NCBI RefSeq assembly: GCF_000196355.1
Contig: NC_007614.1
Span: forward strand, 2,460,001 to 2,492,000
From: Nitrosospira multiformis ATCC 25196
GTDB taxonomy: Bacteria; Pseudomonadota; Gammaproteobacteria; Burkholderiales; Nitrosomonadaceae
Length of the DNA stretch: 32,000 bases
Direction: 5' to 3'
The notes under the pieces are model-generated. The model saw only the letters and a program-made list of their open reading frames with translations, had not been told where the DNA came from and ran no database searches. Positions 7,462 to 21,035 of this stretch are shown here, piece by piece. The translations under genes and the position numbers were made by a program. The first letter of the stretch is position 1, and each line of letters opens with the position of its first letter.

Positions 7462-7517
7462 TGTAGTAGCCCCCAATTGAACCGGACACAGATGCACTGA
7501 TGATAGGAGATAGGCAT

Positions 7518-7925
7518 ATGCCTGGTGCTATGCATAGTGCTTCAGGTTTGGATCGTATTGAAATCGTCACCGGGATCGAGCGCCGCAGGCGCTGGAGCCT
7601 GGGTGAGAAATTAAAAGCTGTTGAGGAATCCCGCTTGCCGGGCATGAGTGTCTCGTATGTGGCGCGAAAATATGGTATTGCTCCGAGCTTGTTATTTCGC
7701 TGGAGGAAGCTCATGACTGAAGGAGGCAAGGAAGCTGTTCGTAGCGATGATGCGGTAGTGTCTGCGGCCGAGGTGAAAGAGTTGAAGAAGCGGATCCGGG
7801 AGTTGGAGCGGGTTCTGGGCAAGAAAACCCTGGAGAACGAGATTCTCACGGAAGCGGTGAAGCTTGCGCATGAAAAAAAACTGATCTCGCGCATGCCCTT
7901 GCTGCCACCGGACGATTTGCCATGA
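7518..7925 (+). CDS. IS3-family transposase OrfA (HTH, InsC-like)
   Basis: ERRRRWSLGEKLKAVEESRLPGMSVSYVARKYGIAPSLLFRWRKL...ELERVLGKKTLENEILTEAV resembles IS2 InsC. SD aggaga lies before the ATG at 7518; the track start is 7500. Confidence 0.85.
   Translation: MPGAMHSASGLDRIEIVTGIERRRRWSLGEKLKAVEESRLPGMSVSYVARKYGIAPSLLFRWRKLMTEGGKEAVRSDDAVVSAAEVKELKKRIRELERVLGKKTLENEILTEAVKLAHEKKLISRMPLLPPDDLP
7873..7880 (+). promoter_or_regulatory. candidate programmed -1 ribosomal frameshift site (A8 run) producing an OrfAB fusion transposase
   Basis: A run of 8 A lies near the end of orfA. A -1 shift here enters the orfB frame, which is open from 7880 to the orfB ATG at 7922 (TDLAHALAATGRFAMKA). This arrangement is typical of the IS3 family. 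Confidence 0.6.
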
Positions 7926-8770
7926 AGGCCATTGCAGACACCATGGGTGTGGCGCGCTCCCGTCTTGTGGAACGGATGAAGCCGCAGGAAAAGTCTTTTC
8001 GTTGCCGCTACAACAAGGCTGATGATGCCTGGCTGTTGCCCTTGATCCGCGAAATTGTGGATTGCCGCGCGACCTACGGATACAGAAGGATTTGCGCTCT
8101 CCTTAACCGCAAACTGGAGAGAATGGGCAAGCCTGCTGTCAATCACAAGCGGGTCTATCGCATCATGCGCCAGAATGGCCTGCTGCTGGCCCGATATACG
8201 GGCAAACAGCGCGTGCTGTCTCATGAAGGCAAGGTCATTACCTTGCGTTCCAATTTGCGCTGGTGTTCGGATGGTTTTGAGATTCCCTGCTGGAATGGGC
8301 AAGTAGTGCGTGTTGCCTTCGCCCTGGATTGCTGTGATCGTGAAGTCATCAGCCATGTTGCCACCACTGGCGGCATTACTGGGGAAATGGTGCGCGATCT
8401 GATGACTGAATCCGTTGAGCGGCGCTTCGGCACCGTTGACCTGCTCCCACACAGGGTGGAGTGGCTCAGCGACAATGGCAGCTGTTACACCGCCAGCGAG
8501 ACAACTGCTTTTGCAAAGGATATGGGCTTCATCAGCTGTTTTACTCCCGTCAGAAGTCCCGAATCCAACGGTATGGCCGAGGCCTTCGTCAAAACCTTCA
8601 AGCGGGATTACGTCTATGTCCATGATCGTCCCGACGCAAAAACCGTAATGGCGCAGCTTGACCAATGGTTCGAGGATTACAATGAATTCCATCCTCACAA
8701 GGGGCTGAAGATGAAGTCGCCAAGACAATTCATCCGCAGCCAGTTACTAACCGCATCCTGTCCGGTTTAA
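7922..8770 (+). CDS. IS3-family transposase OrfB (DDE integrase-like catalytic domain, InsD-like)
   Basis: 282 aa. Candidate DDE residues sit in WCSDGFEI, WLSDNGSCY and SPESNGMAEAFVKTFKRDY. Its ATG overlaps the orfA stop (ATGA). Confidence 0.9.
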   Translation: MKAIADTMGVARSRLVERMKPQEKSFRCRYNKADDAWLLPLIREIVDCRATYGYRRICALLNRKLERMGKPAVNHKRVYRIMRQNGLLLARYTGKQRVLSHEGKVITLRSNLRWCSDGFEIPCWNGQVVRVAFALDCCDREVISHVATTGGITGEMVRDLMTESVERRFGTVDLLPHRVEWLSDNGSCYTASETTAFAKDMGFISCFTPVRSPESNGMAEAFVKTFKRDYVYVHDRPDAKTVMAQLDQWFEDYNEFHPHKGLKMKSPRQFIRSQLLTASCPV

Positions 8771-9168: not shown

Positions 9169-9678
9169 TTATTCCTCGTTCACATCCAGTTTGCGATGTT
9201 CCCCCAATGCATCGGTATCACCTGTCACCAGCGCTTTCACAAGTCCGTATGCCCGCGCAGTAGCGCTGTCAGGCGCATCCCAATATTCGACTGCTATGAT
9301 GCTGACTTTGAGCAAAGCGAGATCCGGATCGTCCAAGCCCTTTGGGAACCAGGGCTTGAGCCAGGGGGACCATAAAGTCTGCATCTTCTCCTTGTCGTGC
9401 ACCAGCTCCGCTGCCCCGGATATGGAAAGATAGTCGTACTTATCGGTACGAGCGTAGGAGAGATTGACTTGCTGGTCCGGTTGCGCTTCCTCGATTTTTG
9501 GGGATGACAGGGAAGTAAAAAACCAGAGGTTGCCTTCGCTGTCCAGTTGCATCGTAGCCATGGGACGGCTACGCAAGGTCCCGTCTTTTTCCTTGGTCGT
9601 CAACATCGCAAATTTGGCATCGCCAACCATTTCCGCCACTTTAGCCAGGGCGGGATTATGTTGTTCATCGATTTCCAC
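9169..9678 (-). CDS. general stress protein 26 / pyridoxamine 5'-phosphate oxidase-like FMN-binding protein
   Basis: 169 aa. FAMLTTKEKDGTLRSRPMATMQLDSEGNLWFFTSLSSPKIEE...LSISGAAELVHDKEKMQTLWSPWLKPWFPKGLDDPDLALLKV is the typical GSP26/PNPOx-like pattern. Confidence 0.85.
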   Translation of the reverse strand: MEIDEQHNPALAKVAEMVGDAKFAMLTTKEKDGTLRSRPMATMQLDSEGNLWFFTSLSSPKIEEAQPDQQVNLSYARTDKYDYLSISGAAELVHDKEKMQTLWSPWLKPWFPKGLDDPDLALLKVSIIAVEYWDAPDSATARAYGLVKALVTGDTDALGEHRKLDVNEE

Positions 9679-10193: not shown

Positions 10194-10766
10194 TTAGCTG
10201 CGGCTTGCATACCAGACCCCATCAATTTGCTCAAATCCGCCTTGCTCCTTCAGGTACGAGTCGAAATCCGGATGGTCGGCAGACAGCAGGATCAAATCGC
10301 CTTTCACATGGCCTTCGGTTTGGACGATCAGATTTTTTACTGCTTCTGGCGAGAGTCCGCCGATGTTTCCACGCTCATCCACCATCCATCTTGTGGCATT
10401 CATGAATGCCTCGTTGCGGGTAAATCCCGTGCCGAAAACGTAGTAGCCCGATTGAACAATCGCGAACCTGACCGGCAAACGGCCTCCAGTTGCCCACTCC
10501 CGGTATTCAGGATAGGCCTCAACCAGGGCAAGTCCGTCTTGGGTAGCTTTCACCGTCCAATGCTCTTCTGAGTATGGAATTCCGGTAGCTTCAGGTGTAG
10601 GACGGCTAATTGCTATTAGCCCTTCTGCCTCCAATTCCGCCAAATCATCAAGGTTGTAGATCTCCGTAAAATGCTTTCCCGCCTTGTCGTGGGTAGTAAT
10701 TTTCGAGAGGATTCGCACTTGTTCTGCTGTCTTCATTCCCTGCCCCCTGGTTAATGTCCTGCTCAT
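10194..10766 (-). CDS. hypothetical protein (orphan), immediately outside the distal island repeat
   Basis: 190-aa ORF with protein-like composition and no motif I recognise. An alternative start at 10736 (MKTAEQV) is preceded by a G-rich SD-like sequence. Confidence 0.55.
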   Translation of the reverse strand: MSRTLTRGQGMKTAEQVRILSKITTHDKAGKHFTEIYNLDDLAELEAEGLIAISRPTPEATGIPYSEEHWTVKATQDGLALVEAYPEYREWATGGRLPVRFAIVQSGYYVFGTGFTRNEAFMNATRWMVDERGNIGGLSPEAVKNLIVQTEGHVKGDLILLSADHPDFDSYLKEQGGFEQIDGVWYASRS

Positions 10767-10859: not shown

Positions 10860-10979
10860 GTCAGTTACCGTCCGATTTCAATAGATGAGTTTGGATTTGT
10901 TTGGACAACAAAAAACCCGCAAGCCTTTATTCATGCGGGTTTTCTGGATTTCTTTGGATTATTTTGGACTTTCAATTGG
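10860..10979. repeat. distal 120-bp direct repeat of the island (att-like); contains a copy of the ssrA downstream terminator
   Basis: Identical to 20557-20676 except for one position (10873 C versus 20570 G). Confidence 0.95.
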
Positions 10980-11235
10980 GCGGCGTCAACTGAATAATGC
11001 CCTGTGATGCCCATGTATAAAGGGTTATGCTAGTTAAAGAATTCTGAGTTACCGTCAAAGTTACCGCCACATTACCGATGTGGGAGCACTGAAATATGAT
11101 AAAAGTGTGCATTCTTTGATGCCAGAGTGGCTGGCGGTTCCTTGGCTAGAGCAGTCATTTCCGTTTTCTTAAAATGCTGTGCTTCCCAAGCGATCAGCGA
11201 CTATTTCAAACATCAAATCATAGATCAAGAATCTA

Positions 11236-13857
11236 TCAGTTACTGTGCAAGGAATTAGGTTGGGAAGCCGAGGTTGTATCACTGGCCTTCGCACCCGCGT
11301 TAATGATGGCAGCATCCAGAACCGAGCGGTATCCTGTCAGTGAATACTCGCGCAGCTTTTGGAAGAATGCGTTAAAGTCACGCGGGGCCACCATGTTGAA
11401 CTGGTAGCGCACCGACAATCCTTCTTTTTCTAACCAAGCATTCAGTTGGGTGAAATGCGCACTAGCGTATTCGTGCTTTTTCACGTTTTCTGGAGATAGA
11501 TCGCTGATTTCGCCATCGTCCTTGATCTCGGCCACAAACAGCCAGTCACCTTGTTTGATGAAAAAATCCGGGCTGAATTCACCGCGTTTTGGATGTTCAC
11601 CCTTCTTCCACGCGTATTCGAGCGAATAGAAGTTCATGGCAGCGTTCTTCAGCCAGGTGTCCAGACATTTTGTGTTTTCCCTTTTGGTCAATTCCCGCAT
11701 GAACTTGCGTTCGGGGGTAGCGTCGGCAATGGCGAGATTGACGGGCGATTTGAAATCGGCGGGGTTCCCAACCTCCACCCGACCGCTAACGAAATCCCCA
11801 TCGGCATCAACTACCTCGTCAAAGAATTCCTGCTGCTCGTCCACCAAGGTTTCGCGACAGCCCTCGGTGAAGAAGACTGTTTTTGTCCCACGCCGCAGTT
11901 CTGCGGCACTGCAACTGTCGGCCTGCCGTGTCGCGGTGTTAAACGTCACCAGCGCCTGGGGCGACAACACATACACTACCCGTTTCGTCGCTTTGCGCTT
12001 CAAAGGGCCGATTGCTTGTAGGAACTTCTGGCGATTGTCGTCGGTGATGCGACCATCAGTGATGCCCGCCTGTTTCAATGATTCACTGACAATCGCCATG
12101 CATTTGTCGCGGGGAAAACGTTTTGCATAGTTGGTCCGATCTTCCGGGTCTTGTGCATCGGCGGTTTCTTGGTCGATGCTCTTGAGCCGCAAGTAAAGCT
12201 GCTCAGCCACATCCTCAGCGGAATAAGTTTTCTGGCGGAGGATTGCGCCAAACTTTGAATGCTTGCCGGTCAGCGCCTCCTCGAATTCTACCGTAACGGA
12301 TTGGTCCACTACCTGTGAAGGCAGCACCACGTAGCCCTTCGCGAAAATCTGGTACTCACCGCTTTGCGGATGATCGGTGATTTCTTCCTTACGCGTGTAA
12401 TCCAGGTTGTGCAGCTCGAAGTGATACGGTGATTCCACTAGTGGTCGCGACGACAATCGGCGCTCGATTTCTAAAATCTCGTCAACTAGATGCTTGATGC
12501 GCCTTGACCATGCATCGTGATTGAATACCGTCACTATCGGATCTTCCCCTGTCCAGCCAACGGGCCTACGCAAGCCCCGGCCTAGCACCTGAGCTATTAG
12601 CAATTTACTGTTGAATGCGCGTTCCTCGTGCGGGACAATCTGGAACACGTTTTTCACATCCCAGCCCTCGGACAGCATGGATACCGAGATGATCCATTCC
12701 ACCTTGCTGGCAAGGCTATCCACTGTTCGTAGCATCGCCACATTGGCCTGATGCTCCTTGGCTGAAGTTACCACCAGCACCTTTGCACGAGCCTCTTCCG
12801 GTTTGATCTTCTCCCATGTAGTCAGCCAATCAGTCAGGTCTTCCGCCACCTGTTTGCACGCCGCGATCTTTTGCGTAATCACTATGGTCAAGGGCCGAAT
12901 AATCCGGCTCTTCAGCTTCCTCTTCCAATCCTCATGTCGCTGCCAGATCAGTTGCCAGTAGTCTTCTTGGCCATGGGTAGCTGGCATATCAGAAACGTAC
13001 TCCACCTTTTTAACGAAACGCTCCTCGATGGCCTGCCGCAACGAGTAGCGATACACCACGTCTGAGAAGTAATCGTTGCCAACATAGCAGGTACCAGAAA
13101 CGGCTAGCACATAGCGGAAACCATAGTCGGCCGATTGCAGGAAGGTTTTCCACTTACCCGCCTCTGTGCCGGTTTCGTTAGCCACGTGGTGGGCCTCGTC
13201 GTTCAGTACCGCTACCCGAGCGCCCTTACCCTTGAGACTGTCACGGATAGATGAATTCACATGGTCCAGAATAGCGTGGTAGTTCTCCACACACAGGGCA
13301 CCATCTACAATGGTTTCCGAGGCGTTGATGACGCGAGGTGTGGAAAAGCGCGCATAGGCCGGTAGGGTATCGCGTAAATCGGCATTGCTCGCTAATTCCT
13401 TGAACTTGGCCAGGAGGCCTGCCTCAATTGTGTTGGATGGGCAGAGTACCAGCACCCGGTCCACTACCCCCTCAGCTAGCAGGATCGCCGCGATGCCATA
13501 GAGCACGAAACTTTTGCCCGTGCCGGTTGCAAGATCCAGTGAACAGGCAAGCTGAGCGGGTAATTGCAAATGCGACTGCATCGAATCCCATCGCCCCCAG
13601 CGATGTCGCAAATCCTCGTTGGCCTCGAAATTCTCTTTGGCCAATTGGCACAAGTCGGCATACCGCCCACCCAACCAATAACTCAGTACGGCTCGGATTG
13701 CCGTCTTCTGGTATTCACGGTGCCCACACAAGGCGTCAAGAAATGCCTCATAACGGCTCTCATCCCATTTACAAGGATCATGGGGCTTGATTGCCAGAAC
13801 CAGGTCTTCATTGCGGAAGGCGCGGCGGTCACCGAAATGGCGTGCGGTAGTCCTCAT
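11236..13857 (-). CDS. res: Type III restriction endonuclease, Res subunit (SF2 helicase plus a PD-(D/E)xK nuclease)
   Basis: 873 aa. Helicase motifs: I DLATGTGKSF, II VLNDEAHH (DEAH), III VSGT, VI QVLGRGLRR. The C-terminal nuclease motif is SPDFFIKQGDWLFVAEIKD. Its start overlaps the mod stop by 4 nt. Confidence 0.9.
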   Translation of the reverse strand: MRTTARHFGDRRAFRNEDLVLAIKPHDPCKWDESRYEAFLDALCGHREYQKTAIRAVLSYWLGGRYADLCQLAKENFEANEDLRHRWGRWDSMQSHLQLPAQLACSLDLATGTGKSFVLYGIAAILLAEGVVDRVLVLCPSNTIEAGLLAKFKELASNADLRDTLPAYARFSTPRVINASETIVDGALCVENYHAILDHVNSSIRDSLKGKGARVAVLNDEAHHVANETGTEAGKWKTFLQSADYGFRYVLAVSGTCYVGNDYFSDVVYRYSLRQAIEERFVKKVEYVSDMPATHGQEDYWQLIWQRHEDWKRKLKSRIIRPLTIVITQKIAACKQVAEDLTDWLTTWEKIKPEEARAKVLVVTSAKEHQANVAMLRTVDSLASKVEWIISVSMLSEGWDVKNVFQIVPHEERAFNSKLLIAQVLGRGLRRPVGWTGEDPIVTVFNHDAWSRRIKHLVDEILEIERRLSSRPLVESPYHFELHNLDYTRKEEITDHPQSGEYQIFAKGYVVLPSQVVDQSVTVEFEEALTGKHSKFGAILRQKTYSAEDVAEQLYLRLKSIDQETADAQDPEDRTNYAKRFPRDKCMAIVSESLKQAGITDGRITDDNRQKFLQAIGPLKRKATKRVVYVLSPQALVTFNTATRQADSCSAAELRRGTKTVFFTEGCRETLVDEQQEFFDEVVDADGDFVSGRVEVGNPADFKSPVNLAIADATPERKFMRELTKRENTKCLDTWLKNAAMNFYSLEYAWKKGEHPKRGEFSPDFFIKQGDWLFVAEIKDDGEISDLSPENVKKHEYASAHFTQLNAWLEKEGLSVRYQFNMVAPRDFNAFFQKLREYSLTGYRSVLDAAIINAGAKASDTTSASQPNSLHSN

Positions 13858-15875
13858 GCTCTTTTTGCCTCTGTCTTTGCAATGGGAGAGCCGTTGCGCT
13901 TTTCAAGTTTCTCTAGCGCAAAATGAGCCGCAGGTATCACCACACGCGCCTCATTGCCATAGATGTCTAGGAAAACCGCCATGACCTTCTCGCCGGGGCG
14001 GTTGGCAGGAAAACGCACCTCCCAAGCCGCCCCCTCGATAGCTTCGGCATAAAACACCTCGTCCAGATCGAACACATCATTCTCGGCATCGTAGTCATAA
14101 TCCAACATTACCATGGACAATGTTTCCCGGTTGCCACGTTTTCGCATCGGCTCCCGCACGGCGGCCTCGCTGAAAAAAGTGTCGATGCGAATGAATGCTT
14201 GCTCAAGCAATTCACCCTCCGGGTTGCCTCGACCCACGGCGTACTCCAACTCAGGGGTCTTAATGAAATCGAAGCCTACGGCATCTACCGTGTCGTTCAC
14301 CGCCATCTCGTCAGTCGGCTGTTTTAAGGCAAGAAAGTCGCGTTGATGCAGCTCGTGAATGATGGAATACGGCACCCGCAGAGCGTAATAGCGTACCTCC
14401 CCGATCTGGATGTAATCCTGTTGGAAGTCGAAGGCCATTGCCGGCGCGATAATGAATATACGTGTGCCAACCTTGGAGCCCGCCGCTTCATGGATAGAGC
14501 GTAACGTCTCCTCGCTGACTGTCGCGCCATTCCCCTTGCGGTGATCGAAAATAATGACGGGGCTGGCTTTCAGTGTGCCATCAAATTGGATGCCACCGAT
14601 TCGTTGGGGGGCACTCTGGCAACTAAAGAGGGTGAGGGCAAACCGCCGCCAGTCACTCCAAGGCAATTCCTTAAGACGGGCGAAGTCGTAGAGGCCGGCG
14701 TTGTAAAGGGTGAAGGGCTTGGCTTTGAGCGCCTTGCCCTTTTCGCTGAGATTCAGCATCCGCTTCTGGATGGTGTAGATCGCAAGTTTCCCGCAGTCAA
14801 TGCCGATCCAGCGACGATTAAGTTTTTCTGCAACCGCACAGGTGGTTCCTGATCCGGCAAATGCATCCATAACAAGATCTCCAATATTGGAGGAGACCTT
14901 GATGATTCTATTTAAAAGTGCAGGATTTTTCGCGCTTGGATAGTCGTATCTGTCACTTGATGCTCTGTTAAGAAATGGAATGTCGCTCCACCAATCACGA
15001 GGTCTAATACCCTCTTTTGTGTCGAAGTAATCCCTATAGACCCATTCCGGATTTGCTGCCTCTACATCCAAAGGAATACCATGCTTACCGCGCCATGGAC
15101 TTCCCTTGACGTTTCTTCCCCTTAATTGAAATTTCCTTCCATCTTCATCGATGTGCTCATATTTTGCCAAAGTACCTTGTGAATACTGACCAGCCGCCTC
15201 TTTCCAGTTAAATACATGTTGATCTGATTTGAAGTTTTTTGCATACACCAAGATATTGTCATGCTTCCTGTTCCAATGACGTGTTGCTAACTCACGTTCT
15301 CCGTAGCACCAAGCAACTTCGTTCATAAAGTTTTGCTCGCCAAAAATCTCATCAAGGATAACTTTTATGTAATGAGACTTACGGTAATCCAGGTGAACGT
15401 ATAGAAGGCCATTATCAGAAAGAAGGTCACGAATGAGGATTAGCCTTTTTCGCAAAAACTCAATAAATGTAGCGCCATAAATCTTATCCTGATACGCTTT
15501 TTGGTCTTGCGCGCCCTGAAATTCTTGTCGAGTTGCAAATGGCGGGTCGATATATACCAAGCGGATACCAGACGTTCCGTCGGCGTTGCATAGTTCCCCA
15601 CGCCGCTTCATTTCCAGCAACGTCTTCATGGCTTGCAGGTTGTCCCCAAAGATCAATTTGTTGTGCCACGTCACCCCGTTTTTATTGAAGGTTCGTACTG
15701 GCTGTAAGGGTACTGCCAGCGTGTTGGCGATGATGTCTTCCTCGCGCTCCTTGCCTTGATAGACCAGCTCGTATTCACGCTTCTCAGGCGGGAACAGGAT
15801 GCGCGACCATTCCGGCGCTACTTCTCCACCGGAAAGTAGGATTTCGATGATGCGTTGTCGTTGTTCAGGTGTCAT
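13854..15875 (-). CDS. mod: Type III restriction-modification system methyltransferase, Mod subunit (beta-class N6A/N4C MTase)
   Basis: 673 aa. Motif IV VYIDPPFAT comes before motif I DAFAGSGTT (the beta-class order), with a variable region between them. It sits upstream of, and overlaps, res. Confidence 0.92.
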   Translation of the reverse strand: MTPEQRQRIIEILLSGGEVAPEWSRILFPPEKREYELVYQGKEREEDIIANTLAVPLQPVRTFNKNGVTWHNKLIFGDNLQAMKTLLEMKRRGELCNADGTSGIRLVYIDPPFATRQEFQGAQDQKAYQDKIYGATFIEFLRKRLILIRDLLSDNGLLYVHLDYRKSHYIKVILDEIFGEQNFMNEVAWCYGERELATRHWNRKHDNILVYAKNFKSDQHVFNWKEAAGQYSQGTLAKYEHIDEDGRKFQLRGRNVKGSPWRGKHGIPLDVEAANPEWVYRDYFDTKEGIRPRDWWSDIPFLNRASSDRYDYPSAKNPALLNRIIKVSSNIGDLVMDAFAGSGTTCAVAEKLNRRWIGIDCGKLAIYTIQKRMLNLSEKGKALKAKPFTLYNAGLYDFARLKELPWSDWRRFALTLFSCQSAPQRIGGIQFDGTLKASPVIIFDHRKGNGATVSEETLRSIHEAAGSKVGTRIFIIAPAMAFDFQQDYIQIGEVRYYALRVPYSIIHELHQRDFLALKQPTDEMAVNDTVDAVGFDFIKTPELEYAVGRGNPEGELLEQAFIRIDTFFSEAAVREPMRKRGNRETLSMVMLDYDYDAENDVFDLDEVFYAEAIEGAAWEVRFPANRPGEKVMAVFLDIYGNEARVVIPAAHFALEKLEKRNGSPIAKTEAKRA

Positions 15876-15968
15876 GTTAAATTTTTCAGCTTCGTTTTCA
15901 GCGCCTGCACCTCTTGGCGTTCTATATAACGACTATTACAGGCCTTCATCAGGCTAGCATTTTTAATC

Positions 15969-16492
15969 GGTAACACCGGTAACAATTGGGATAAGGTGCT
16001 AGAAACATCCAATTCATGAGGCTTTCCGTGTTACCGCAAAATGTCACCCATTCGAATATATGGGGTAACGGCGGTAACAGGTGTCAGCTTAAGTCAGAAC
16101 AGACTGAGAAGAGGCGCTTGCTTAACCGTGGCATGTATCAGCAACAAAGGGAAGATGTTAAAAAACGCTCTACTGTAACAGAAGGAGTTATCTTAGATGT
16201 TAACTGTAACTGTACCGTATCTACTATAGGACTGCACGCACGAAGCTGTACAGTACGGTAACCGTAACAATATCAGTAACGGTTACAGTTACGGTAACAG
16301 AGAATCGAATATATCAATAAATCCTGTAACGGTAACAGGAACATGAGAAGCAAAGATTTCTGTAACAGGAATTCCTATAGCGAGATTTCCGGTAACAGTG
16401 CAAGTGTTACCGGCCTGACTTGGCGCGGTAACACCAGGGTTACGTCGAAAATTTCGCTCCTATTGGCTGTTACCGCGTTACCGCTGTAACAG
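15969..16492. repeat. array of ~23 GTAAC/GTTAC-core motifs (13 exact GGTAAC/GTTACC; GTAACAG x7); candidate iteron or origin region
   Basis: GGTAAC at 15969, 15978, 16064, 16073, 16257, 16293, 16331, 16391, 16427. GTTACC at 16030, 16406, 16469, 16477. TGTAAC/CGTAAC/AGTAAC variants lie in between. No convincing ORF covers the region. Confidence 0.85.
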
Positions 16493-16504
16493 CGGCAATT
16501 GCGT

Positions 16505-18277
16505 TTACTCTTCCTCATCCCGATATCGAATAACGTAGACCCTCGATGAACCCAATCCTTGAAGTCGCACAACTTGCGACGGTTTGCCATCATTGCCTGG
16601 AAGCAATAGGCCAGCATTCAGCAAGACTTTCTTAACCGTCTTCTCATCAAAGCCCTCGCAGACTTCCTTGCGGAAGACTTGCGGCAATACCAGGAACTCC
16701 CGGCCTTCTTTTATTCCGTTCCGGTAGAAACCTGCCCTTTTTGGAATGCGCTGGTCAATTGTTGCGTTGATATCTTCAAACCTGCTTGCACCATGGGTTT
16801 CAAAGAAAGCCCGTACCTGAGCCAATATCGCCCGTTCTTCGCGGTTGCCACTCCCGCCAAAGGCTTCCAGCCAAACGGCAAAGCAGGTGTGAGCAGCATG
16901 AATCGCTTCACCTTGAGACCATCCTGTTAATTTTGAGTGTGTTGCCAGTTCGCCCGCCACGGCAACCAATGCAAAGCGACGCGCTACCCGCTCAACTTGC
17001 CCTGCCGCCCTTGCCGGTATTACTCCCGTTACAAATTGCTTGATTTGCTCAGGGACAAAGTCTTTGAGGGAAATCCTGTTCGCGACGAGATAGCGCAACC
17101 ATTCCTTACCAACAGCGCCATGATATTTGCTAGATGCTTCCTTTATCGCTACCGCCAGGGAAGCAGCATTGGGATATCCATTCAATGTCTCGAATATGCC
17201 CATGCCTGAGCCTGCATCAGCTTCTATGTCGGCTAGACGGATTTCCTGCCCGGCAGTTGTTTGTTTGCCTGCTTGTGCCATGATTGCGGAAAGAGAGGTT
17301 TCACCTGCGCTTAAGAACAGCAGCCGCCAGCGTTGGCTTGAGCGGGCAAAGCCATTGCGTGACGCTCTGACTTTGCCTTGACCATTCGCCAAAAGATAAG
17401 CGGCTTCTCCCGCATCCTTTGGTTCAATCTATCCAATTTCATCCAGAATCAGCAAGCCGTCATTGTGCAGTGTTGCCAATCCTTCCAAGCCATTGACCGT
17501 GCCACGCCAGAGCCGCACATAAGCTGAAGGATTGCCCCATACTGAAGCGGCAAGCTTTAATGCACTGGATTTGCCGGAAGATGAGGCGCCGCGAAGATGA
17601 AAGCCACCGGAGTCTTCCCCTGCAATTTCAGCCAATGCGCCTGCAAAGGCCACGGATAGCGCAAATACAAGGCGCGTATTGCCTGCCGCCAGTGCTGCCA
17701 CAGAATCACGCCATTCCTCTACCGTGCCGACTTCCGTATAAGCCGGTTCAATCGCGTGCGAGTTTTGAAATACGACAAGTTCTTCAGTTTCCCCAATTGC
17801 ACCAGTGGGTGTAACAAAAGTATTGCCGTGCCAGCCAAGACGATCTACGCAACGTGCTCTTGCTTCTACCGGCCATACCTTGACATATGCAGCCAACAAG
17901 CCACGTGCGAATTGATTAGGCGAGATATGCAACCCAAGGCGGGCAAGCTCACGCCTCACATCCGCGCCGTCACTCTCCAGGAGTTCGAGCGGCATTGCCC
18001 ATTGGTGGATATGTCCATCATCATCCCGCCATTCCAATAATCGCCCCCATTCGCCGCTCTTCCCATCCCTTGTTTTGGCAATTACAGATAGAGGGACGCA
18101 AATCCATTGCGGCAATTGCTCGTTTCCGTCTTTGTCTCTACCATGGAAATAGACGCCTGTTTCTGCAAGTTCGAAGCGACCGCTCCCGTATGAGCATGAA
18201 GTTATAAGAGCAGTCGTTGAGTTTTGGGTTGACGGTAGGGGTGCGATTTGTGCTGTGCTGATATTTCGCATCGCCAT
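16505..18277 (-). pseudogene. DUF927-type P-loop NTPase (putative island replicase/helicase) interrupted by one in-frame TAG
   Basis: The track ORFs 17429-18277 and 16505-17392 are in the same frame. The sequence reads ...GASSSGKSSAL (Walker A)...LLILDEIG (Walker B) TAG IEPKDAGEAAYLLANGQGKVRASRNG..., with the stop codon at 17429-17431. The N-terminal pattern (GVYFHG.., WICVPL, TRDGKSGEWGRLLEWRDDDG, RLGWH) is DUF927-like. Confidence 0.8.
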
Positions 18278-18281
18278 CCCC

Positions 18282-18533
18282 TTACAGCGCCTTGCCAGCC
18301 GTTTTACGGGCGGCTTCCAGTTTGGCTACCAATTCCCGTATCTCATCATCTGTCTTCCCAGCAATGCGGGCAGCATTAATGGCGGCTACTTCGCTGGCAG
18401 GCCAGCCTACAGAACGCGGGCCAAGTCTAACTGGCTTGGGCCAAAGTCCTTGCTGAATGCGAAGATAAATGGTTGAACGGGATGCGCCGGACTCAGCTTT
18501 AACAGCAGGAAGTCTTAGGATTGCTTGAACCAT
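18282..18533 (-). CDS. alpA: AlpA-family helix-turn-helix regulator / excisionase-like protein
   Basis: 83 aa. ILRLPAVKAESGASRSTIYLRIQQGLWPKPVRLGPRSVGWPASEV is the AlpA/MerR-type phage regulatory pattern. It lies 4 nt upstream of the replicase-like gene. Confidence 0.85.
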   Translation of the reverse strand: MVQAILRLPAVKAESGASRSTIYLRIQQGLWPKPVRLGPRSVGWPASEVAAINAARIAGKTDDEIRELVAKLEAARKTAGKAL

Positions 18534-18678: not shown

Positions 18679-19272
18679 CTATTTGCGCGGGCCGGTGGGA
18701 AGACCGTCAGCGCGAAGGATAGTAGCCATGATTTCGGCGGTGCGTTCAGACACGCCTTCCCCCTTTAGCCAATCAATGACTTGCTGATTGGTAGGCGCGG
18801 TGGTTGGGTCTGACGGGTCGTAGTTGCTCCAGAAACGCTGGGCAGCACCTCCAAGCTTTCGCAGTAAATGGGTTTCGTGTCTGCCCCATGGCCAATCGAG
18901 ATTACTGAGTGTGATAGGTTCAGGTTGCCAGGGGAATTGTGCGGGGATGGGATACTGTATGCTTTTGAGCCAGGTAGCGAAATTTGTAAGCTTGACTTCG
19001 CTTTCTTCCAGTCCTTCCTCACTGCGTGAAAGCAGTTTCAAGAAACTGTTCGCGCCAATACTGGCCTTGGCTAGGCCAAGCAAATCCTCGAATTGCCGGG
19101 GCGGTTCCTTGAACGACCTTGCGAGTTGAGGTTGCTCGAACAGTTGGAAGCTCGCTGGATCAAGATCGCAAGCCAGCGCGACTGACTGCCAGAGTCTTGC
19201 CTGTTTAACCGATTTCCAGTTATCCCAATTTGGCTTGCGAAGTCCCCAAGGCCAAGCGTTATCTTCACTCAT
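18679..19272 (-). CDS. hypothetical island protein
   Basis: 197-aa ORF between int and the alpA-like gene. It contains two WPWG motifs (NAWPWGLRK, LDWPWGRHE). I recognise no family. Confidence 0.6.
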   Translation of the reverse strand: MSEDNAWPWGLRKPNWDNWKSVKQARLWQSVALACDLDPASFQLFEQPQLARSFKEPPRQFEDLLGLAKASIGANSFLKLLSRSEEGLEESEVKLTNFATWLKSIQYPIPAQFPWQPEPITLSNLDWPWGRHETHLLRKLGGAAQRFWSNYDPSDPTTAPTNQQVIDWLKGEGVSERTAEIMATILRADGLPTGPRK

Positions 19273-19298: not shown

Positions 19299-20510
19299 CT
19301 AGGCCACGCCATGCAAGGGGATGATTTCGGCACCAGCTTTGAGTTTGTCCAGGTAATCCGCCCATTGCTGCATCATCTTGCGACGCTCGGGTAGATGAGC
19401 GGTTCGATTATAGGCGCGGCCATTAGGGTCTCTTACCGAATGAGCTAACTGGTGTTCGATAAAGTCAGGACGAACGCCTAGCACTTCATCAAGAATGGTT
19501 CGCGCCATGGCGCGAAAACCATGGCCACTCATTTCTTCCTTGTCTATGCCCATGCGTCGCAGGGCAGCAAGGATTGCATTATCACTCATGGGCCGGCCAT
19601 TGGTACGCGCACCGGGGAAAACAAAGCGGCTTCTGCCTGTTAAAGCTTGCAGTTCCTTGAGGATTTCCACGGCTTGTGTTGAGAGGGGAACAATGTGCGG
19701 GGTATTGGTCTTGGTGACGGTATAGCGCCATTCCCCGCCATCCAGGTCTATATCCTTCCATTCGGCTTTGCGCAGCTCGCCTGGGCGCACAAATACCAGT
19801 GGAGCAAGGCGCAATGCACAACGTACAACGTGAGAACCTGTATAGCCATCGATTGCCCGCAGCAATGCGCCTACCTGTTTAGGTTCGGTAATGGCGGCAA
19901 AATGTTCTCCCTTCACCGGGGGAAGGGCGCCTCTCAAATCAGCGGAAATATCTCGGGTAGCACGTGCGGTTGCGATGGCATAGCGAAAAACTTGTCCACA
20001 GTTACCCAATGCCCTATGCGCGGTTTCCACTGCGCCCCTGCTTTCGATGCGCCGCACTGTTGCCAGCAGTTCAGGTGCTGCTATCTCGGAAATGGGCTTG
20101 CTACCAATCCAGGGAAAGATATCGCGCTCGAACCGGCGAATAATTCGCTCACCATGGCTTTCATTCCAGGTCGGGGAAAACTTCGCATACCATTCCCTGG
20201 TGATCACTTCGAAACTGTTTGTAGTCTTTTCCAGCTTAGCAGCTTTGACCGCTTTACGGTTTTCGCCGGGATCGACATCGGAAGCAAGCAACTTGCGAGC
20301 TTCGTCACGGCGATTACGGGCGTCTTTCAAGCTCACGTCGGGATAAACACCCATGGAGAGGGTTTTGCGTTTGCCGCCATAGCGGTAATCAAATCGCCAC
20401 CAGCGGGAGCCATTGGGTTTGAGCAGCAGGTATAGCCCGCGCTCATCTGTTAGCTTGAGAGGTTTGTCAGCAGACTTGGTATTGCGAATAGCGGTGTCGG
20501 TAAGTGCCAT
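19299..20510 (-). CDS. int: tyrosine-type site-specific integrase (P4-like, with a DUF4102 N-terminal arm-binding domain)
   Basis: N-terminus: MALTDTAIRNTK..LTDERGLYLLLKPNGSRWWRFDYRYGGKRKTLSMGVYP. Catalytic region: HGFRAMARTIL, IEHQLAH, GRAYNRTAHLPERRKMMQQWADYL. ATG at 20510 is preferred over the track start at 20549. Confidence 0.93.
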   Translation of the reverse strand: MALTDTAIRNTKSADKPLKLTDERGLYLLLKPNGSRWWRFDYRYGGKRKTLSMGVYPDVSLKDARNRRDEARKLLASDVDPGENRKAVKAAKLEKTTNSFEVITREWYAKFSPTWNESHGERIIRRFERDIFPWIGSKPISEIAAPELLATVRRIESRGAVETAHRALGNCGQVFRYAIATARATRDISADLRGALPPVKGEHFAAITEPKQVGALLRAIDGYTGSHVVRCALRLAPLVFVRPGELRKAEWKDIDLDGGEWRYTVTKTNTPHIVPLSTQAVEILKELQALTGRSRFVFPGARTNGRPMSDNAILAALRRMGIDKEEMSGHGFRAMARTILDEVLGVRPDFIEHQLAHSVRDPNGRAYNRTAHLPERRKMMQQWADYLDKLKAGAEIIPLHGVA

Positions 20511-20556
20511 GACGGTAACTCCAGTTGGCGGTAACTCTATTACCGTCAAGTTTACC

Positions 20557-20676
20557 GTCAGTTACCGTCGGATTTCAATAGATGAGTTTGGATTTGTTTG
20601 GACAACAAAAAACCCGCAAGCCTTTATTCATGCGGGTTTTCTGGATTTCTTTGGATTATTTTGGACTTTCAATTGG
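20557..20676. repeat. tmRNA-proximal 120-bp direct repeat of the island (att-like)
   Basis: Partner of 10860-10979. It overlaps only the terminal CCA (20674-20676) of ssrA and covers the ssrA terminator. Confidence 0.95.
20605..20640 (-). terminator. rho-independent terminator of ssrA
   Basis: On the minus strand: aacccgca-tgaataaaggct-tgcgggtt followed by ttttttg, ~35 nt after the tmRNA 3' end. An identical copy lies at ~10908-10943, downstream of res. Confidence 0.75.
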
Positions 20677-21035
20677 TGGAGGCGGCGGGAATTGAACCCG
20701 CGTCCGCAAGCCCTCTACAGGCAGTTCTACATACTTAGCCATGTTTTTTAATTTAACCTGGCATCCGTCAACCGGCGGACTGATGGCAGGCGAGTCACCT
20801 ATTGTTTAACGCCCTGTAAAGTAACCCTACCGGGCGCGATCCTCGTTAATGGCTCCGCTGTCTGTTGCCAGACCCGGCGTTGAGGCCCACCGGTGCGGAG
20901 TCCAGCCGGATTTAAGCGGCTAGAGCGTAGTTTTCGTCGTTTGCGACTATTGGTTTCCAGATGTATTTACGAGGTAACTGGTCCTCGGTATGCCCTGCTC
21001 TGTTTTGCAACCCACGTCGAAGCCAAGTCGCCCCC
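20674..21035 (-). ncRNA. ssrA: tmRNA (transfer-messenger RNA, SsrA)
   Basis: The minus strand runs from 5' GGGGGCGACTTGGCTTCGACGTGGG to GGGTTCAATTCCCGCCGCCTCCACCA 3', with an alanine-type acceptor stem including G3:U. The tag reading frame GCA AAC GAC GAA AAC TAC GCT CTA GCC GCT TAA encodes ANDENYALAA (20912-20944). Confidence 0.95.

Follow-up and report, generated by a model that had tools for sequence, protein, structure and literature searches.

The genome of Nitrosospira multiformis ATCC 25196 contains a 629-bp gap, between a DUF927 gene and the mod gene of a Type III restriction–modification (RM) system, that is crowded with copies of the short core GTAAC, and this locus raises the question of what the repeat array does and which protein reads it. 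The gap occupies positions 15876–16504 of the window, that is, of the whole stretch of 32,000 nucleotides analyzed here (NC_007614.1, 2,460,001 to 2,492,000, forward strand), to which coordinates refer unless another locus is named. The array lies within a ~9.7-kb integrative island at the 3′ end of ssrA, and most likely serves as the vegetative replication origin of this island, read by the island's own DUF927 protein, referred to below as Rep. A preliminary description of this DNA, made from its letters alone, had drawn an analogy with iteron origins; the reading is now supported by the position of the array past rep, the homology of Rep, a survey of ~85 related loci, and the published layout of origins in phage-inducible chromosomal islands (PICIs) and Staphylococcus aureus pathogenicity islands (SaPIs).

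The array extends from 15969 to 16492 and comprises 23 GTAAC/GTTAC cores in both orientations (counted as 5-mers, with core positions from 15970 to 16490), which agrees with the "about two dozen" first reported. All 13 exact hexamers are found where they had been placed, with GGTAAC at 15969, 15978, 16064, 16073, 16257, 16293, 16331, 16391, and 16427, and GTTACC at 16030, 16406, 16469, and 16477. The densest 550-bp stretch holds 23 cores, where the mean over the window is 1.1 and the median 1, and the window contains GGTAAC 30 times in all, compared with the 7.5 ± 2.4 expected from 100 dinucleotide-preserving shuffles, none of which reaches 30. The gap, whose length had been given correctly, has a GC content of 44% versus 52.5% for the window. 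The extended consensus of the array, drawn from 116 sites in seven related islands, is c-G-GTAAC-(A/G)-G. The heptamer GTAACAG is indeed present seven times on the plus strand, but it is not confined to that strand as had been claimed, since one CTGTTAC at 16467 places a further copy on the minus strand.

The first core lies 15 bp past the stop codon of rep, which is encoded on the minus strand, and opens a rep-proximal iteron set (16391–16492) with cores at 16486(+), 16477(−), 16469(−), 16439(−), 16428(+), 16406(−), and 16392(+). The pair at 16477/16469, with cores 8 bp apart, is oriented away from rep, and the core positions of this set are kept across the GTAAC-type islands. An expanded central cluster (16257–16366) follows, in which the cores are tightly packed, some of them 6 bp apart, and whose length varies among relatives; just distal to it (about 16148–16235), the window is ~88 bp longer than its closest relative, locus L001. 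The iteron-poor central stretch (16080–16256) holds two cores only and, by analogy with SaPI and PICI origins (PMC9371898, PMC6092414), is a candidate melting region; the highest local AT content within it, 65–68%, is at 16160–16230. Taken together, 16160–16230 and 16290–16380 have an AT content of 65–70%, compared with the window average of 47.5%, and no sharply bounded AT block is seen. The distal set (15969–16078) consists of the pair 16065/16074, a lone inverted site at 16030, and the terminal pair 15970/15979, which has a 9-bp spacing and is oriented back toward rep. In the reading direction of rep, the rep-proximal pair is written >> and the distal pair <<, and the full orientation string of the window, <>><><<<<<<>><<<><<<><<, retains these canonical ends around an expanded middle. 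The sequence TTATCCCAA, located 16–24 bp from the distal pair, is kept in the window and L001 only.

The comparison with related islands separates the array from the genes that follow it. A scan of genome contigs with a single Rep protein yielded 5 loci and a scan of metagenomes a further 80; ~85 related loci were surveyed. Six of the loci (L001, L006, L007, L009, L010, and L012) encode Rep proteins 69–91% identical to that of the window, the closest belonging to N. multiformis Nl18 (L001, 91%). All six keep int, a gene of ~200 codons, alpA (except L009, where it was not called), and rep, followed by a gap of 385–580 bp with 11–19 GTAAC cores, and the GTAAC array is also kept in L015 and L067. 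In a multiple alignment, the GTAAC cores form invariant columns while the spacers drift. The genes past the gap differ from island to island and include another Type III RM system, Schlafen/AlbA, a Type I/IIG methyltransferase, MmeI with SIR2, Dcm with HATPase, and genes of unknown function. Homology between islands ends right past the last pair, TGTTACCGnTGTTACCG (15969–15985); between the window and L001, the core is 91–96% identical, whereas Mod is only 27% identical and Res is nearly unrelated (window 11236–15968 versus L001 7230–11471). Because homology stops after the last pair and the cargo is swapped, the array is part of the core that the islands conserve, and cargo exchange has its boundary at the distal edge of the array, which marks a swap hotspot for defence genes. 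In the more distant L002, L004, and L005 (Rep 36–41% identical), the repeats are weak or ambiguous (six copies of TCTCCA, four of CACAAAG) and were not used as evidence.

For the survey, the k-mers in the 600 bp past the rep stop codon were compared, locus by locus, with those in the remainder of the locus. About 70 of the 83 usable loci carry at least six copies of one short motif past rep, typically 8–15, with 0–3 copies elsewhere in the locus, and most of the remaining loci have degenerate but recognizable arrays. Over the family, the arrays nearly always amount to 8–23 copies within the first 200–550 bp past the gene. Repeated motifs at the same position in homologous DUF927 islands, which the preliminary description had proposed to look for, are found whatever cargo follows. 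At least nine motif classes occur, namely GGGGAC(A) in about 26 loci, GTGGGAC(A) in about 15, GTAAC in about 10, CGGGAC in about 6, GGGAAC in 6, GGTTAC in 5, and GTGGAAC, GTACCAC, ACACCG, and TGGGGAG in one locus each. Among ~70 arrays, the medians are 45 bp from the stop codon to the first site, 217 bp for the span, and 12 for the number of sites. The orientation string seen most often, >>><>><<><<<, forms a perfect 6+6 dyad; 42 of the 57 distinct arrays open with >> and close with <<, and 255 of 335 pairs of neighbours with the same orientation are spaced by 9–10 bp. Two loci depart from this layout in a particular way: in L022 (3078–3600) and L026 (2267–2690), a long insert stands between the outer iteron triplets and contains another repeat family, unrelated to the first, that is CCTAGG/GCCTAGG-like and, in L022, also includes GACGTGCCATAGAG.

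The protein encoded beside the array belongs to a family with known structures. When the intact orthologue was compared with PDB sequences by phmmer, the matches were SaPIbov1 Rep (8tch, E = 8e-14) and Cch of staphylococcal cassette chromosome mec (SCCmec; 5dgk, E = 6e-11), and Rep matches the SCCmec Cch1 model in NCBIfam, phage primase/helicase families in PHROGs, and DUF927 in Pfam. An AlphaFold2 (AF2) model of Rep built on an 85-sequence alignment has a predicted local distance difference test score (pLDDT) of 81 and a predicted template modelling score of 0.71; it supersedes an earlier model from 14 sequences, in which the ATPase core was poor (pLDDT 61.6). Foldseek aligns the AF2 model over its full length (~580 aligned columns) with 5dgk (E = 1e-18) and 8tch (E = 7e-17), the next PDB match having an E-value of 8e-3, and the identity of Rep to these solved structures is 13–16%. 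Because sequence, fold, and NCBIfam matches agree, Rep is assigned to the self-loading initiator-helicases and, on homology and modelling, is predicted to be of the SaPI Rep/SCCmec Cch type. Many Rep homologues are longer, at ~800–950 residues, and carry an N-terminal Toprim domain (P0045, P0049, P0117, and others; L013 and L014), while Rep of the window has 590 residues.

The part of Rep that varies with the repeat motif is its C-terminus. The mutual information of alignment columns with motif class peaks in residues 550–589 (two 20-residue blocks, 0.72 and 0.61), and is mostly 0.16–0.47 in other blocks of Rep, the nearest being 390–409 (0.61) and the variable N-terminal block 30–49 (0.58). 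The top columns are 565, 503, and 568, and columns 565 and 568 fall within a segment that reads KPSQVVR in the GTAAC islands. Three of the four islands with GGTTAC have QLLR or QLMR there, most of those with GGGGAC or GTGGGAC have TQKPR, and those with GGGAAC have QRVR, QKVR, or QRIR. In the AF2 model, this segment is a β-hairpin that follows two helices (529–536 and 542–551), the whole helix-helix-hairpin being modelled at pLDDT ~80–86. Rep pairs sharing a motif have a C-terminal identity 5–14 points higher than other pairs at matched core identity. Judging from these alignments, motif class appears to track the last ~40 residues of Rep and not the downstream cargo or the repeats on the integrase side, and the array is most likely bound by the DUF927 protein through its C-terminal domain. 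The candidates originally named were the DUF927 protein, the AlpA-like helix-turn-helix (HTH) protein, and the arm domain of the integrase; these results favour the first, with its C-terminal domain, and speak against the last.

The integrase deserves attention because the GTAAC core recurs near the ends of the island, as had been pointed out. GGTAA(C) is present at 20514–20566, 10864, and 11048–11065, and it forms part of GACGGTAA repeats, three direct and two inverted, that lie on the minus strand at 20514–20570 and overlap the int start codon; three further GACGGTAA repeats are found at the right island end (11048–11075). This superficial likeness to the iteron is what could suggest that the array consists of integrase arm-type sites, or is another recombination or synapsis platform for the Arm-DNA-bind_3 domain. 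The extended consensus of the terminal repeats, GACGGTAA with an optional final C, differs from the cgGTAAC(a/g)g of the array, and the array is ~4 kb away from the att end beside ssrA and ~5 kb away from the opposite att end. The GACGGTAA repeats accompany GTAAC iterons in the window, L001, L006, L007, L009, L010, and L012, and are kept both in islands inserted at ssrA and in those inserted at a tRNA gene (L007, L009, and L010). In L067, GTAAC iterons are instead combined with an integrase-proximal GGGGCAA repeat, and the corresponding combinations are CGGGGGCAT with GTGGGAC iterons in L013 and TACCAAC with GGGGAC iterons in L014. As the integrase-proximal repeats and the iterons vary independently, the likeness of GACGGTAA to cgGTAAC appears coincidental and the integrase arm an unlikely binder; the GACGGTAA repeats are probably arm-type or autoregulatory sites of the integrase, distinct from the iterons, and an integrase platform at the array is very improbable. 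A role of the array as recognition or regulatory target of the adjacent Type III Mod/Res enzyme, which the preliminary description had already called less likely, is suggested by adjacency to mod and by nothing else, and it is effectively refuted by the island comparison: islands that lack a Type III system past the gap (L006, L007, L009, L010, and L012) carry the GTAAC array as well, and in L001 a Mod only 27% identical stands beside a near-identical array, which leaves this explanation with a negligible probability.

Two other explanations give the array to a different protein of the island or of its partners. It could be a platform for the AlpA-like HTH protein or for the 197-aa protein encoded between int and alpA, and thus a regulatory or excision-control region in place of an origin; AlpA is a DNA-binding protein whose gene lies just upstream of rep, and the 197-aa protein is largely confined to GTAAC-type islands. 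The array nevertheless stays with the 3′ end of rep when the upstream genes differ (L013, L014, and the satellite phiAH14b), most such elements have no gene for the 197-aa protein, and AlpA homologues 70–77% identical to that of the window occur with TGGGAC or GGGGAC arrays. The strongest association between protein and motif is that of the Rep C-terminus, and the homologous SaPI Reps bind iterons of this kind (PMC9371898), so that such a platform is unlikely, if the least unlikely of these alternatives. Somewhat less probable still is a packaging site (pac/cos-like, for a small terminase) or a partition centromere used by a helper or host factor. Short repeats spaced by one helical turn also make up arrays in parC/parH centromeres and in some pac sites, and one relative of the island, phiAH14b, is a proven satellite (PMC4936722). 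The island, however, has no par or terS gene, the motif covaries with Rep and not with a helper-derived gene, and a 6+6 dyad beside rep is the published signature of an origin (PMC6092414, PMC9371898).

In the mechanism that we infer for the array as a replication origin, the GTAAC cores would be iterons bound by the C-terminal winged-helix-like domain of the DUF927 Rep. After excision of the island, Rep would fill the rep-proximal and distal sets, which face each other with a spacing of about one helical turn, the iteron-poor and moderately AT-rich centre would be melted by Rep, and hexameric Rep helicases would assemble at the array, probably two of them head-to-head, as a 6+6 dyad would suggest, whereupon the excised circle would begin to replicate. 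A bolder version of this scheme is conceivable, if rather doubtful: each 6-iteron half would template one Rep hexamer, with one winged helix per iteron, so that the origin DNA itself would direct the loader-free, head-to-head assembly of an MCM-like helicase as a double hexamer; a short segment of the C-terminal hairpin (QVVR, QLLR, QKPR, or QRVR) would constitute a simple code that switches iteron specificity; and the 23-site array together with a nonsense-bearing rep would act as a sink, incompatibility, or decoy element against incoming relatives.

Several observations weigh against the origin reading. The AT-rich centre is modest (65–70% AT) and offers no textbook unwinding element, the array of the window exceeds the canonical size about twofold and is irregular in its middle, part of it possibly being a non-functional expansion, and no clear array is seen in L090, L051, and L052. 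The correlation between C-terminus and motif is confounded by shared ancestry and carries no phylogenetic correction. Rep of this sub-lineage does not have the Toprim primase domain common in its relatives, which leaves priming unexplained. Finally, Rep is cut in this copy by an in-frame TAG (17429–17431, minus strand), and the origin cannot now work in cis. The codon is CAG in L001, and the glutamine that it encodes there is invariant in the 85-sequence alignment and lies just past the Walker B LILDE motif. Synonymous and nonsynonymous differences between the rep genes of the window and L001 number 67 and 27 before the stop and 46 and 25 after it, and this similar pattern of substitution on both sides makes the mutation look recent. 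Because rep carries this nonsense codon, the origin is probably silent here, inactive unless a related Rep is supplied in trans; alternatively, the array in this copy could act only as a Rep-binding sink.

The island that contains the array has the core int-alpA-rep-ori, all in one direction, and occupies a defined att site where ssrA ends at its 3′ side (transfer-messenger RNA; 20674–21035, minus strand). A 120-bp direct repeat, whose left copy (20557–20676) starts at the CCA end of ssrA and whose right copy (10860–10979) is 99% identical to it, brackets the element, and the island is therefore ~9.7 kb long. The repeat is unusually long, holds a terminator-like hairpin, and ends within the first GACGGTAAC site; its left-end sequence also accompanies the related island L006, and the right copy may be what is left of a second island in tandem, in place of a simple attR. 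The island genes relevant here lie on the minus strand: a tyrosine integrase with an Arm-DNA-bind_3 domain (19299–20549); the 197-aa protein of unknown family (18679–19272), kept mainly in GTAAC-type islands; an alpA-like HTH regulator or excisionase (18282–18533); rep (16505–18277, 590 codons), predicted to encode the initiator-helicase of SaPI Rep/SCCmec Cch type; and the Type III RM cargo (11236–15875), with mod at 13854–15875 and res at 11236–13857. The 197-aa protein has no match in Pfam, PHROGs, or NCBIfam; it contains repeated WPWG motifs and is 51–91% identical among islands. No capsid, morphogenesis, terS, interference, or par genes were found in the island, and only the Type III RM system lies between the array and the right repeat.

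Within the gap itself, the 81-aa open reading frame (ORF) noticed earlier does overlap the array (16016–16261, plus strand), but it is not the only one, an 80-aa ORF being present on the minus strand at 16375–16617. Both were ruled out as genes: close relatives have indels of up to ~88 bp there, and the ORFs cannot be conserved for that reason. A search of the gap against Rfam returned only a chance microRNA match (E = 0.67), so that an RNA element is not indicated, and a promoter and terminator scan gave ~2–3 sites against ~1 expected from shuffles, none of them informative. The gap has no match in E. coli genomes, and ssrA, the only part of the region that does, matches weakly; the element is consequently not considered enterobacterial. 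Beyond the right repeat lies an IS3-type element (7500–8770), in which an ORF (7500–7925) precedes an HTH_21 and rve transposase gene (7922–8770), and between this element and the island are a pyridoxamine-oxidase-like gene (9169–9678) and a 190-aa ORF with no family (10194–10766).

Taken as a whole, the array is most likely an iteron origin of the PICI/SaPI type, a known kind found here in a betaproteobacterial island that carries defence genes, and an origin located 3′ of rep would not surprise specialists. The reading would give a conspicuous repeat array a concrete function as a replication origin, and would likewise give the DUF927 genes of proteobacterial islands a function, that of an origin-binding initiator-helicase; the role of DUF927 in islands of the MGIVchHai6/MGIVflInd1 type is still called elusive (PMC7449626). 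The edge of the putative origin also forms the border between the conserved int-alpA-rep-ori core and a swappable defence slot, which should help to delimit such islands and to find defence systems in them. The iteron variants paired with C-terminal variants over ~85 loci constitute a data set on how helicases read origins, and three useful extensions are open to experiment: the switching of iterons across the family, the 6+6 dyad, and the function assigned to DUF927.

Among known replicons, iteron plasmids and phage P4 are the looser analogues. The iterons of plasmids (those of RepA, pi, and TrfA) are direct repeats of ~17–22 bp bound by WH1–WH2 Rep proteins that recruit the host DnaB. In plasmid iteron origins, repeated initiator sites set the specificity of the replicon (PMC4980987). 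The island differs from such plasmids in that its cores are 5–9 bp long and occur in both orientations, and in that the initiator would itself be the helicase; no RepA-type gene was found. The α protein of P4 is described as a helicase of the superfamily 3 (SF3)/D5-like class, with two separated clusters of sites, ori and crr. P4 is a satellite whose primase-helicase binds repeated octamers (PMC6092414), and the analogy with ori and crr drawn in the preliminary description holds as a functional likeness. It is looser than that with SaPIs and PICIs, as the helicase family differs, Rep being a DUF927 protein with the Cch/SaPI Rep fold, and the island has one dense cluster beside rep with no second, distant cluster.

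Closer to the island is SCCmec, whose Cch (DUF927, 5dgk) is the best full-length structural match of Rep, belongs to the same Pfam family, and corresponds to its NCBIfam model, Cch1. To our knowledge, SCCmec has no defined iteron origin, and it also differs in using Ccr serine recombinases where the island has a tyrosine integrase. The Pseudomonas satellite phiAH14b (KU708005, L095), whose satellite behaviour has been shown by experiment (PMC4936722), resembles the island in its order int, alpA, Toprim primase, and homologous helicase (36% identity), followed by a 309-bp gap with an array. The latter (9290–9530) consists of 12 GGGGAAC sites after a gene annotated as 'RNA helicase', in the arrangement >>> < >> (AT-rich) < > <<<, with an AT-rich centre clearer than that of the window; a term search of the paper describing phiAH14b finds no mention of an origin or iterons. 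In contrast to the island, phiAH14b has another iteron sequence, a separate primase gene, and tail-assembly-like genes.

In the Gram-negative PICIs, int is followed by alpA and pri, and the origin lies past pri (PMC10111431); two iteron sets flank the centre, and the rep-ori region of EcCICFT073 supports plasmid replication (PMC6092414). The island resembles EcCICFT073, as far as published description allows the two to be likened, in its unidirectional int, alpA, and pri/rep, with the putative origin directly downstream and accessory genes after it, and differs in that its cargo is a Type III RM system alone and no helper phage is known. As morphogenesis, terS, and interference genes are missing, the island is not classified as a PICI, only as the bearer of a PICI/SaPI-type replicon. 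In SaPIs, the winged helix in the C-terminal domain of Rep binds iterons of five or six nucleotides, ATP being needed for neither binding nor melting, and the origin consists of 6–12 iterons immediately downstream of rep, with an AT-rich centre and at least two opposed iterons per side (PMC9371898). Compared with the origins of SaPIbov1, SaPI1, and SaPI5, the host here is betaproteobacterial, 23 sites are spread over ~520 bp as against 6–12, the centre is only moderately AT-rich, and the sub-lineage of the window has neither an adjacent primase gene nor an Stl-type divergent regulator. Shared with them are the structural family of the initiator-helicase, iterons of 5–6 nucleotides 3′ of rep in opposed sets, and the tie of iteron specificity to the C-terminal domain of Rep, established in SaPIs (PMC9371898) and correlative here. 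In its position, composition, orientation, and predicted cognate protein, the array thus appears, from its sequence, to correspond to the origins of PICIs and SaPIs.

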